Source: Bacilli bacterium
GTDB taxonomy: Bacteria > Bacillota_I > Bacilli_A > RF39 > UBA660
NCBI GenBank assembly: GCA_017541885.1
Contig: JAFXYF010000011.1
Coordinates: forward strand, 85,007 to 149,006
Reading direction: 5' to 3'
Length of the DNA: 64,000 bases
In this document: in pieces, positions 49,204 to 51,627 of the stretch
Layout: each line of letters starts with the position of its first letter
Numbering within the stretch: the first letter of the stretch is position 1
The notes under the pieces: generated by a model
Databases searched by the model: none
The model's input: the letters and a program-made list of their open reading frames with translations, nothing else
What the model was told of the DNA's origin: nothing
Made by a program: the position numbers and the translations under genes

Positions 49204-49262
49204 TTCTCTTTTTTTATTTATAGTAATGTGTTATAATATTGCTTTCCAAAAGAGGGGATACT

Positions 49263-49688
49263 ATGTATAAAATAAGAATAGTTTGTAATGACTCTGATTT
49301 AGATGAAGTAGAACAAATTAGAAAAGAAGCATTTCATCTAAAAGAAAATGCCATTAATACTTTTAAAAAACATATTGAAAATGGTAAGATGATTGCGTTT
49401 TCTCTAGAAACAGAAGACGAAAAAATAGGTGGATGTTATCTAGGAGAATACAATAATACTTTATATGTCTATTATTTGTTTTTAAAAGAGTCATATCAAA
49501 GAAGTGGTAAAGGAATAGGTAGAAGATTCTTACTAGAAATATTTAATCATAAGAAAGCAATAGAACTAATATTAAAACATAATTATGAGTATTCATCTCT
49601 TCATCCAACATGTACTAAACTAACTGAAATGTATAAAGAAATAGGCTATCAAGAACAAACTAAAGGATACTATGTAAAAAGAATATAA
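49263..49688 (+). CDS. GNAT family acetyltransferase
   Basis: LFL..SYQRSGKGIG (motif A) and MYK.IGY. Confidence 0.7.
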   Translation: MYKIRIVCNDSDLDEVEQIRKEAFHLKENAINTFKKHIENGKMIAFSLETEDEKIGGCYLGEYNNTLYVYYLFLKESYQRSGKGIGRRFLLEIFNHKKAIELILKHNYEYSSLHPTCTKLTEMYKEIGYQEQTKGYYVKRI

Positions 49689-49699
49689 AAAAAGAGCTA

Positions 49700-49975
49700 T
49701 TATTTAGCTCTTTTATTTTCTCTAACTGACTCTGTATAAGCATTAACTGTATCTAATGCATTATCATAAGCAGGTACTACTTCATATCTACCATTATCTG
49801 CATCCCAAACTCTTCTCCAACATTCAAATAGATCTTTTGTTTCGTTCTTTATAATAAATACTTCAGGTTCAGTTTGACCATTTTTAAATATATTTGTAAG
49901 TAGTTGAGTTTTTTCATCAGTATCTAATTCTGCATTTAATATAGCAGTTAATAAGTCTTCTATAGTAAATCCCAT
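49700..49975 (-). CDS. Hypothetical protein
   Basis: GGAGG RBS before ATG at 49975; normal amino-acid composition. Confidence 0.6.
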   Translation of the reverse strand: MGFTIEDLLTAILNAELDTDEKTQLLTNIFKNGQTEPEVFIIKNETKDLFECWRRVWDADNGRYEVVPAYDNALDTVNAYTESVRENKRAK

Positions 49976-50146
49976 ATATTTACCTCCCATCGACACATTA
50001 TTATATAAATTTTTTATAATTTGTCAATTAATATTTACACATAGTAAAAAATATAACTTTGTTGATATATAAAGGGAAAATAGTGTAAGATTATACATTT
50101 ACAAATTTCACTTTACAGCACCACTCGACAAATTTTTAAAAAACTA

Positions 50147-50174
50147 TTGCATTTTTATAAATGTGTAGTATACT
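50147..50174 (+). promoter_or_regulatory. Sigma-A-type promoter with no downstream ORF
   Basis: TTGCAT (50147-50152), 16-nt spacer, TATACT (50169-50174); A/T-tract UP-like element upstream. Confidence 0.6.
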
Positions 50175-50179
50175 TAAAT

Positions 50180-50888
50180 TACTATTAAAGATACAAGTAT
50201 ATTTATCGAATACCTGTAATCAATAATAGTATAGGTAATATTATAAAAAATAAAAAAACATAATATTATCTAACCCGATAATATTTCAATAAAAGGAATA
50301 TTATCACACATAGGTTACACTTATTAATATATATAAGTATGTTAACAGCTATATTTTATAATTTTATGTACTAACATAAATTATTAAATATAGAAATATT
50401 ATTATATTAACAAATAACTATTATATTAATAAAAATAACTATTATATTTAACAAACTATTATATTAAAAACAAAATTATTATTAAAAAAACAAATTATTA
50501 TTAAATATCAAATTATTATATAAAATAATGTATTATGGTAACATAATAAATAAAAATATAATAAAAAATAATAATTTAAAAAAATAATAATTCAAATATA
50601 ATAACTACAAATATAATAATTATCTAATATAATAATTACCCAATATAATAATAAAGTACATAATTAATAATCTATTAACTATAGATAAAGTTATTTATGA
50701 TATAGTAATACCTGTATATATTATCTCATTCACCTTCTATTATCATTACAGCAAACAGTAAAGTAAATGAGAGTAAGAAAGTCAAAACTTATTTAAGTGG
50801 ATATATTAATAATTTATCGATGCATAGATATTTTATTAATGGTCGTTTGCAGAAAGAAATTAATTTGACAGATTAATTTCTTTTCTTT
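50180..50888 (+). ncRNA. Candidate large structured non-coding RNA (~700 nt), family unassigned
   Basis: No ORF of 60 aa or more. Serial hairpins, an 8-stem nested ladder (50397-50653) and two possible pseudoknots, bounded by a promoter and a terminator-like hairpin. Confidence 0.6.
50851..50888 (+). terminator. Terminator-like hairpin ending the candidate ncRNA
   Basis: agaaattaat-ttgacag-attaatttct followed by tttcttt. A second, weaker terminator lies at 50930-50955. Confidence 0.55.
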
Positions 50889-50973
50889 ATGAGTAGTTCG
50901 ATTTATTAGAATTTACTTTTTAAAACAGGAAAGAGACTTAACGGCCTCTTTTTTTGTATAAGAAAAAGAGATC

Positions 50974-51627
50974 TTAGATCTCTTTTGAATTCTTATATAT
51001 TGTAATTGTTAAAGCTATTAGGAATAATAATATATCTATATTTCTTAAGAAATATAAAGTTTCAGAGAATACCACTCTAATATTTAAATAAATCATTATA
51101 CTTCCAATATGCATACCCATCATTGATAAAGCAATAAATCCAATCGCAACAAATGCAAGAATAGTAAATATTTTATATGGGAAATGTTTCTTTATTGTTA
51201 ATCCTAAAATACTTAATCCTACCCATACATGGAATAATAAAGTTGTAATGTCTTGCATTAGATAACTTATTTCTTGAATAAGATAAGCAGGATAACTAAA
51301 CATATGCTCTGCAGTCTTAGACATAAACATTATTTGTGATACAAGATCTTTAACATTTAAAATAAGCAATAATACAATTGCAATTAATGAAAGTATATTT
51401 GTAATAGTAGTAGTTCTATATTTTGTCATACTAACAATTAAGAATACAATTATAATTCCATCTAATACTAAAGTAGATAAGAATCTAAATATCATATCTG
51501 GAATATTATCAACAAAATAGTTACCAACAGAGAAGTTATAAATAAGAATTATTAAATATAATAAAATATATAACGCAAAACCAACGATTCCTAATATAGG
51601 GAATAACTTATTTCCTTTCTTTTTCAT
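50974..51627 (-). CDS. Multi-pass membrane hypothetical protein
   Basis: About 6 TM segments; AAAGGAG RBS. Confidence 0.7.
   Translation of the reverse strand: MKKKGNKLFPILGIVGFALYILLYLIILIYNFSVGNYFVDNIPDMIFRFLSTLVLDGIIIVFLIVSMTKYRTTTITNILSLIAIVLLLILNVKDLVSQIMFMSKTAEHMFSYPAYLIQEISYLMQDITTLLFHVWVGLSILGLTIKKHFPYKIFTILAFVAIGFIALSMMGMHIGSIMIYLNIRVVFSETLYFLRNIDILLFLIALTITIYKNSKEI

Follow-up and report, generated by a model that had tools for sequence, protein, structure and literature searches.

The window analysed here is the whole stretch of 64,000 nucleotides (nt) at positions 85007-149006 of contig JAFXYF010000011.1, which belongs to a Bacilli bacterium assembly (GCA_017541885.1; 1.45 Mb in 16 contigs, 98% complete with 7% contamination). 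The G+C content of the window was ~27%. Two genes on the minus strand, encoding a 91-aa orphan protein (p91) and a 217-aa membrane protein, flanked a gap of 980 bp. No open reading frame (ORF) of at least 25 aa was present in this gap, and no tRNAs were found. The gap held a putative non-coding RNA gene on the plus strand, referred to below as the host RNA, and within it a ladder of eight nested A-U hairpin rungs in mirrored order (Table 1). The ladder is probably a greatly enlarged, lineage-specific peripheral hairpin arm of this structured non-coding RNA.

Table 1. Features in and around the ladder-bearing gap, in window coordinates.
Feature	Position	Strand	Description
p91 gene	49700-49975	-	91-aa orphan protein; own 12-of-12 promoter at 50027-50000
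Putative promoter	50147-50174	+	TTGCAT 50147-50152, 16-nt spacer, TATACT 50169-50174; read by eye
Putative non-coding RNA gene (whole)	50181-50895	+	~715 nt, predicted ends; no ORF of at least 25 aa, covariance-model homologs
P2 hairpin	50277-50305	+	GATAATATTTC / GGAATATTATC; A-rich loop ending AAAAG
Conserved core	50313-50320	+	GGTTACAC; GGTACAC in most relatives
P3 long-range helix, 5' strand	50324-50340	+	Partner 50707-50724
Palindromic hexamer 1	50341-50346	+	GTTAAC
Hairpin directly 5' of ladder	50349-50393	+	CTATATTTTATAATTT ... AAATTATTAAATATAG; invariant between window and L028 except one indel column
Ladder arm	50397-50653	+	257 nt; eight nested A-U rungs with A/C-rich internal loops between
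Rungs 1-4 (predicted fold)	50397-50408/50642-50653, 50419-50428/50625-50634, 50440-50449/50609-50618, 50457-50465/50595-50603	+	
Rungs 5-8 (predicted fold)	50474-50483/50583-50592, 50492-50502/50567-50577, 50513-50521/50556-50564, 50531-50537/50542-50548	+	
Outermost rung	50397-50408 with 50642-50653	+	TATTATTATATT paired with AATATAATAATA
TATTATATT copies	50400, 50419, 50440, 50457	+	Left arm
AATATAATA copies	50555, 50595, 50610, 50626, 50642	+	Right arm
AATTATTATT copies	50474, 50493	+	Facing AATAATAATT at 50583, 50567
TTATTATAT	50513-50521	+	Facing ATATAATAA at 50556-50564
Central hairpin	50531-50548		TATTATG-gtaa-CATAATA
Palindromic anchor hexamer	50679-50684	+	CTATAG
P3 long-range helix, 3' strand	50707-50724	+	AATACCTGTATATATTAT
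3' domain	50751-50850	+	Closing helix GCAAAC/GTTTGC; hairpin GAGAGTAAG-AAAGTCAAAAC-TTATTT; hairpin with apical ATGCAT at 50820-50825
Terminator-like hairpin	50852-50893	+	Stem 50852-50864/50872-50885, loop TTGACAG, then T-rich run
Membrane protein gene	50974-51627	-	217 aa

Sequence and predicted fold of the ladder

The first-pass annotation had described this segment as a nested eight-rung ladder built from mirrored short repeats, and every motif that it named was recovered in place or no more than 1-2 bases away. The minimum-free-energy fold reproduced exactly that ladder. It comprised 85 pairs: the eight rungs measured 12, 10, 10, 9, 10, 11, 9, and 7 bp, and the remaining pairs formed two minor helices of 3-4 bp. 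The mean predicted pair probability was 0.91, and all 85 pairs survived in the prediction when the full 724-nt RNA was folded. The paired bases (170 in total) were 84 A, 84 U, one G, and one C. The spacers had been called A-rich, which agreed with the composition of the 87 unpaired bases (62 A, 15 C, 8 U, and 2 G).

TATTAT was present in all eight left rungs and ATAATA in all eight right rungs. Tandem Repeats Finder reported a left array at 50400-50525 (period 17, 6.7 copies) and an inverted right array at 50564-50652 (period 16, 5.8 copies). The two rung variants stood in mirrored order, which indicated that the arms are kept in register. An inverted duplication was disfavoured as the origin of the arms, because the spacers of one arm would then be T/G-rich, and 77 of the 87 spacer bases were A or C. 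The occurrence of A/C spacers on both arms of one strand points to selection or to a strand-specific process acting on the transcript.

The folding energy of the ladder as plus-strand RNA was -34.9 kcal/mol (z -4.2) and that of the minus-strand RNA was -56.1 kcal/mol (z -5.7); none of 200 dinucleotide-preserving shuffles equalled either value. With DNA parameters, z was -3.1 and two of 200 such shuffles equalled the ladder energy. The lower minus-strand energy arose because the complement of the plus-strand loops is U/G-rich. A rod scan covered 1,202 windows of 270 nt on both strands, taken from the 161 crude intergenic regions of the same genome that were 200 nt or longer. When these windows were ranked by their longest unbranched rod, the ladder came first (minus strand, 92 pairs) and third (plus strand, 80 pairs, span 247), and the remaining top rods lay at the start of contig C8 and in C2. 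The ladder had a single copy in the 1.45-Mb genome, where two other matches were A/T-rich chance matches.

The host RNA family and its variable segment

Rfam 15 (4227 models, including OLE, ROOL, GOLLD, 6S, and T-box) gave no gathering-score matches in the window or in the loci of eight relatives, and permissive Rfam scans of 49900-51100 and of the relatives' loci returned chance-level matches only. RNase P, transfer-messenger RNA (tmRNA), and signal recognition particle (SRP) RNA were ruled out as the identity of the host RNA, since all three were found elsewhere in the same genome. 6S RNA is also rod-like with internal loops. The host RNA differs from it in being branched, much longer, patchy (3/47 genomes of the genus), and without the 6S-type central bubble. 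The Rfam 6S model had no match in the 98%-complete genome, in which RNase P, tmRNA, and the small SRP RNA were found, but the host RNA family is far too patchy for a 6S RNA. A literature search that left out supplements found no description of the host RNA.

The relatives totalled nine, namely a metagenome contig (L028) and eight genomes of the same bacterial family, so that ten sequences were compared, two of them with the ladder. Contig L028 (2,154 bp) came from a metagenome scan with the 91-aa protein and spans the whole intergenic region. Searching the genus at the DNA level with the 3' part retrieved G046 (E 1.8e-17); its locus was syntenic with the window, in that the membrane protein and the two following genes all had relatives there. 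A covariance model built from these three sequences (R1) matched 3 of 47 genomes of the genus, own genome included (new: G007), and 5 of 151 in a one-per-genus sample of the family, own genome included (new: G415, G273, G078, and G255). A second model of eight sequences (R2) matched 3 of 41 genomes of the genus, own genome included, and added none; in the family sample, it matched 6 of 151, own genome included (new: G150). In a class sample, R2 matched its own genome only and none of 136 genomes of other families. One further relative, L057, was gained by a pattern scan of the genomes of 185,579 species and confirmed at E 1.5e-28, and another pattern-scan match (L056) was dropped, as R2 did not confirm it.

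A pattern of the 3' domain had no match in viral contigs, and the RNA of G007 had none in phage and plasmid collections, in which the ladder itself was not searched. A DNA search with the whole intergenic region in 40 relatives gave A/T-rich chance matches only (seven of the eight retrieved loci were examined). The 5' part (50170-50400) gave two short weak candidate matches (E ~1e-7) in 400 genomes of the order. No constant neighbour gene was found across the family loci. Judged by these comparisons, the host RNA is a putative stand-alone structured RNA family unmatched by Rfam 15; its occurrence was patchy and, among the genomes covered, limited to a single family of uncultured gut Bacilli.

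All members shared the same order of elements; several of the structural statements on the relatives were by-eye readings of the sequences. The 5' part consisted of a -10-like box (by eye), which stood at the equivalent place in the relatives, one or two 5' hairpins, a GGUACAC-like core, the 5' strand of helix P3, and a palindromic hexamer. The 3' part consisted of a variable segment, an anchor hexamer, the 3' strand of P3, the 3' domain, and a hairpin followed by a T run. The usual length of the family RNA was ~380-440 nt. The equivalents of P2 had differing stems and a UUAAA(A)G loop (by eye), and the core motif was found in all nine sequences that reached that far. P3 was a duplex of 16-20 nt (-6.7 to -11.9 kcal/mol) that occurred at the same offsets with differing sequences in 9/9 sequences. 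In the relatives, the helix GCAAAC/GTTTGC closed the 3' domain, which contained a GUCAAA hairpin and another hairpin that bore a palindrome at its apex.

The spacing of the landmarks on either side of the ladder was fixed, and the ladder sat in the sole length-variable segment of the host RNA. The distance from the core to the first palindrome was 26-28 nt in the six sequences measured, and that from the anchor hexamer to the P3 3'-strand motif was 36-38 nt in every relative. The distance from the core to the anchor was 61, 68, 81, 81, 83, 95, and 111 nt in seven relatives, compared with 366 nt in the window and 365 nt in L028. This excess corresponded to the ladder (257 nt) plus the 45-nt hairpin before it. 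In other genomes, the segment was occupied by a 20-nt hairpin (G007) or one of ~47 nt (G273; by eye). The suggestion that the ladder could be an expandable arm of the RNA was thus supported, since it lay in the length-variable segment of a covarying RNA. The contig of G046 broke off 26 nt upstream of its anchor hexamer, roughly at the point where a ladder would be expected to stop. This break fits an unassemblable arm but proves nothing; a DNA search and a pattern search of the G046 genome for the missing 5' half of the RNA found nothing.

Base-pair changes were consistent with the shared structure. RNAalifold on the pair of window and L028 gave 248 pairs, of which six were changed on both sides and none was broken, compared with 0-1 in slid controls. 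One of the six (alignment columns 25/766) lay in a long-range helix predicted to form between the two termini of the aligned stretch, one in the hairpin GAGAGTAAG...TTATTT, and three in the hairpin bearing ATGCAT; the sixth was a change from U-A to C-G at 50860/50876 in the terminator-like hairpin. In P3, the 3' strand read ACCTGT in the window and ACTTAC in L028, and the duplex with the unchanged 5' strand was retained in both. An alignment fold of the 3' domain from three sequences (A3) contained 66 pairs, 13 of them changed on both sides. In a blind test, each sequence was folded alone and the changes of the other were scored. The counts (kept on both sides/kept on one side/broken) were 8/6/9 for the plus strand of the window and 6/5/8 for the minus strand, which supports a structure, at the level of predicted folds, without deciding the strand. 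The predicted secondary structure of the host RNA is therefore conserved and supported by covariation.

Several further features were seen in single relatives or small groups. G078 (L040/L049) carried a long 5' extension, ~330 nt upstream of the GGTACAC core, with several ATATATAC-like motifs every ~15-20 nt. The extension folds into a closed multi-hairpin domain, and it may be a different arm of the family RNA that expanded independently of the ladder; no promoter was located for this relative. In G007 (L037), G415 (L038), and L057, a conserved block of ~150 nt preceded the RNA. In G007 and G415, this block followed a penicillin-binding-protein gene that seemingly ended early (...GQGVSVTPIHLTV, then stop), and two genes resembling an AbiEi/AbiEii toxin-antitoxin pair followed (N-terminal sequence, by eye). 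The RNAs of these two genomes were far more alike than their flanking proteins (50-66% identity). A Shine-Dalgarno-like GGAGGT(GAT) lay within the 5' strand of the P2 stem in L037, L038, L057, and L061, paired with ...TTTACC; it was absent from the window, and no conserved ORF was found downstream in the four carriers. G007 and G415 also showed a small ORF where P2 lies, which was rejected by eye, as the stem covaries and the frame was not kept in L057. A 22-nt AAAACAAAATAATACTATAA-like unit occurred in five to six tandem copies upstream of a gene in L007 (G040:C2, locus ~1500-1630), and the reading frames of G040 contained in-frame TGA. The public record of L053, a contig of G007, was labelled as a Bacteroidota family, and the genome was placed in the genus of the window, which is an apparent labelling mismatch.

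Conservation, strand and rival explanations

The ladder was 98.1% identical between the window and L028 (253/258 columns), with four substitutions and one indel column. All of these differences affected the unpaired positions (87 in total), and the 170 paired bases were unchanged. The first-pass annotation had asked whether the rung number varies among homologs, and L028, the sole ladder-bearing relative, carried the same eight rungs, each unchanged. Identity was lower elsewhere: 82% for the membrane protein gene (part), 87% for the 91-aa gene, 84% for the GNAT gene, 72% in 50000-50099, and 89% in 50700-50924. From the rates at A/T and G/C sites elsewhere in the RNA, 18.8 substitutions were expected in the ladder, compared with the four seen (Fisher p 0.0007 on A/T sites, window vs L028).

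Here, two explanations were considered for this near-identity. The first is that the ladder is neutral baggage in the RNA gene, an A/T-only quasi-palindrome produced by slippage and template switching at 27% G+C and tolerated owing to its place in a variable segment, and that its near-identity to L028 reflects a recent recombination tract instead of selection; we regard this as a rather unlikely alternative. It agrees with the occurrence of the ladder only in the window and L028, with seven other relatives lacking it, and with the identical block being contiguous and reaching 120 nt past the ladder. Moreover, no rung showed a compensatory change, and the helices were nearly pure A-U. Template switching in quasi-palindromes can itself generate 'compensatory' changes. 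The A/C spacers on both arms of the same strand, however, are expected from neither inverted duplication nor neutral drift, and the pair probability was high despite eight near-identical rungs. In addition, random placement would put all four events in loops with a probability of only (87/257)^4 ~0.013. The other explanation is selection on an RNA arm, and we infer that selection, rather than recent recombination, lies behind the near-identity.

The strand of the host RNA points to plus, because a homologous hairpin with a T run closes every relative on this strand, because helices 23-25 of the 3' domain contain invariant G-U pairs that would be C-A if read on the other strand, and because the loops are A/C-rich. 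A functional minus-strand transcript, either read-through from the 217-aa gene or an antisense RNA, would have U/G-rich spacers that also pair and would thus form a near-continuous duplex. Such a molecule has the more stable fold (-56.1 kcal/mol, z -5.7) and ranked first in the rod scan of the genome. We nevertheless consider it very improbable, given the invariant G-U pairs of the plus-strand 3' domain and the promoter-like and terminator elements on the plus strand in all relatives. Besides, a minus-strand terminator-like site (50951-50930) lies just past the membrane protein gene, and the p91 gene downstream has its own 12-of-12 promoter.

It is also highly unlikely, from the sequence features at hand, that the ladder acts as DNA, that is, as two inverted arrays of ~17-bp repeats binding a protein, such as iterons, a partition site, or an operator array. 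This was the fallback of the first-pass annotation itself, and it is compatible with the two tandem arrays of period 16-17 in inverted orientation and with four AATATTAT-like boxes nearby (~50236-50307; by eye). Plasmid iterons and centromere arrays, e.g., parC of plasmid R1, are clusters of short repeats with a regular period, and the ladder resembles them in having two clusters of regularly spaced short repeats. It differs in lying inside an RNA gene, a transcription unit whose relatives bear a short hairpin at the same place. Its spacers are strand-asymmetric, and the periods of the arms are unequal (left ~17-22 nt, right 12-16 nt), which fits poorly with a symmetric DNA-protein array. No second copy was found in the genome.

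The neighbouring genes did not favour a DNA site either. Among nine neighbouring proteins, Pfam identified GNAT, DUF1846, and a weak DUF2551, and six had no family; no replication, partition, or DNA-binding families were detected. The GC skew was positive throughout the region without a switch, which indicated that it is neither an origin nor a terminus. For the 91-aa protein, no Pfam family was found, and just three relatives existed among 5.8 billion proteins; when sought as a marker in 46 other genomes of the genus, it was found in none. Its promoter was a perfect TTGACA-16-TATAAT, and this and a ribosome-binding site (GGGAGG) both precede the gene. The listed GTG start (49996) is probably too far upstream, and the ATG at 49975 is a better fit. 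Past the RNA terminator, and before the stop codon of the membrane protein gene is reached, two overlapping terminator-like hairpins, each readable on both strands, lay at 50930-50986.

The gene order around the gap was compared at 14 loci on the basis of DUF1846, and further genes were in common only with G005. There (L025, compared with window 49239-51627), the DUF1846 gene was followed by ~330 bp, a relative of the 257-aa gene, and then a topoisomerase subunit. Judged by this gene order, the GNAT gene, the 91-aa gene, the RNA, and the membrane protein gene together resemble a variable region or an insertion specific to the lineage.

A small palindromic mobile element, resembling a miniature inverted-repeat transposable element, inserted into the RNA gene would account for the palindromic structure, and the sequence contains a direct repeat of 10 nt (AATACCTGTA) with copies at 50209 and 50707. 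These copies, however, are 188 nt and 54 nt away from the ladder, each of them has changed in L028, and the 3' copy belongs to helix P3. With no other copy in the 1.45-Mb genome and no credible copy in 40 relatives (seven of eight retrieved loci examined), this origin is extremely improbable.

Public sequencing runs gave a hint of real expression, in that ruminant metatranscriptome runs contained parts of the locus. The segment 50100-51000 was sampled as 89 words, of which six such runs from cattle and sheep guts, under six study codes that possibly belong to one campaign, contained a fraction of 0.32-0.55. The fraction was 0.74-1.00 in fourteen animal-gut DNA runs, and three of these may be the source sample.

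Several points weigh against the ladder being an arm of a plus-strand RNA. The rod is weak in thermodynamic terms, with A-U accounting for 84 of its 85 pairs, and the minus strand folds better than the plus strand (-56.1 vs -34.9 kcal/mol). The blind test did not separate the strands. The rungs (helices 12-19) were invariant between the two ladder-bearing sequences, so that the ladder itself is without covariation. The near-identical block is contiguous (50275-50653) with four substitutions, and none of the 121 sites in 50275-50396 had changed; a recent recombination tract would look the same in this comparison of two sequences. The -35 element of the promoter matches at three of six positions, and a promoter scan left the promoter unlisted. 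Transcription through the arm, the strand, and the transcript ends are inferred, and the RNA runs may contain the locus as contaminating DNA. The E-values of the covariance models came from a shortened calibration and are hence rough.

Proposed growth of the arm and possible self-assembly

We propose that, in the lineage of the window, the variable segment would have grown from a short hairpin to a rod of 257 nt. Growth may have proceeded by repeated duplication, on both strands of the hairpin, of a module of ~17-20 nt consisting of a U-A rung with UAUUAU and an A/C spacer; duplication of one module is suggested by the presence of TATTAT in 8/8 left rungs and ATAATA in 8/8 right rungs. Selection at the RNA level would then have preserved the mirror-order complementarity of the rungs and the A/C spacers, which are unable to pair with each other. 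It would also have preserved a self-contained rod that projects from the junction closed by P3 and leaves the core undisturbed. The first-pass annotation had also considered a protein-binding scaffold or sponge; an Hfq sponge is unlikely, because no Hfq gene was found in the 98%-complete genome. Our best guess is that the arm is a structural strut or multivalent surface of a homo-oligomeric RNA.

Variable arms are known from rRNA expansion segments and from the variable helices of RNase P, tmRNA, and SRP RNA. The ladder resembles expansion segments as a lineage-specific, self-contained helical insertion at a length-variable site, which is predicted to project while the core helices stay intact. 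It differs in adding 257 nt to a core of ~400 nt and in its modular build, with eight near-identical A-U rungs, A/C loops, and almost no G-C pairs.

Three palindromic hexamers recurred in the family while their sequences changed. Hexamer 1 was GTTAAC in four sequences, GTATAC in three, and TTCGAA in one, and one sequence had no palindrome there. The anchor was CTATAG (two sequences), CTTAAG (four), CCTAGG (two), or TCTAGA (two). The apical loop of the 3' domain held ATGCAT in 8/10 sequences and GTATAC in one, and lacked a palindrome in one. Palindromic hexamers containing G or C were otherwise rare in the family RNAs (2-6 per sequence); the hexamers were first spotted by eye and then located by patterns built on them, so that this count was not blind. 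Because self-complementarity is kept while the hexamer sequence changes, symmetric intermolecular pairing is a possible reading.

The dimerisation initiation site of HIV-1 contains a 6-nt palindrome that forms a kissing-loop dimer. The hexamers of the host RNA are likewise six-base self-complementary sequences whose variants are still palindromic, although the systems are unrelated, and here the hexamers belong to a bacterial RNA, in which they occupy the junction and an apical loop, with the loop context predicted. Among large 'ornate' bacterial RNAs of unknown function, OLE, ROOL, and GOLLD are reported to form homo-oligomers via kissing loops, including symmetric contacts between the same loop of two chains (Kretsch et al., Nature 2025; PMC12286853). 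In that study, the symmetric contacts are described for OLE and GOLLD, and a linker of variable length or sequence is not a feature of all three but of ROOL and GOLLD. The host RNA shares with them the form of a stand-alone large structured RNA without a conserved coding partner, and it combines three covarying palindromic hexamers with one variable segment; ROOL is also known from rumen samples. In contrast to these families, the host RNA has no match in Rfam 15, has a smaller conserved core, occurs in one family only among the genomes searched, and oligomerises only putatively.

Thus, we tentatively raise the idea, which we hold to be unlikely on present sequence comparisons, that the host RNA belongs to a new self-assembling class. 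In this class, the palindromic hexamers would serve as symmetric RNA-RNA contacts that form a homodimer or homo-oligomer, and the ladder would be a lineage-specific strut or zipper. If this were true, the eight interchangeable UAUUAU/AUAAUA rungs could pair within or between chains and so define its valency or geometry.

Structured RNAs with lineage-specific arms are already known, and an eight-rung A-U arm of 257 nt on a core of ~400 nt would be an extreme and unusually regular case, from which the way in which such arms grow might be learned. Of wider importance is the host RNA family itself, as its three covarying palindromes make RNA self-assembly directly testable.

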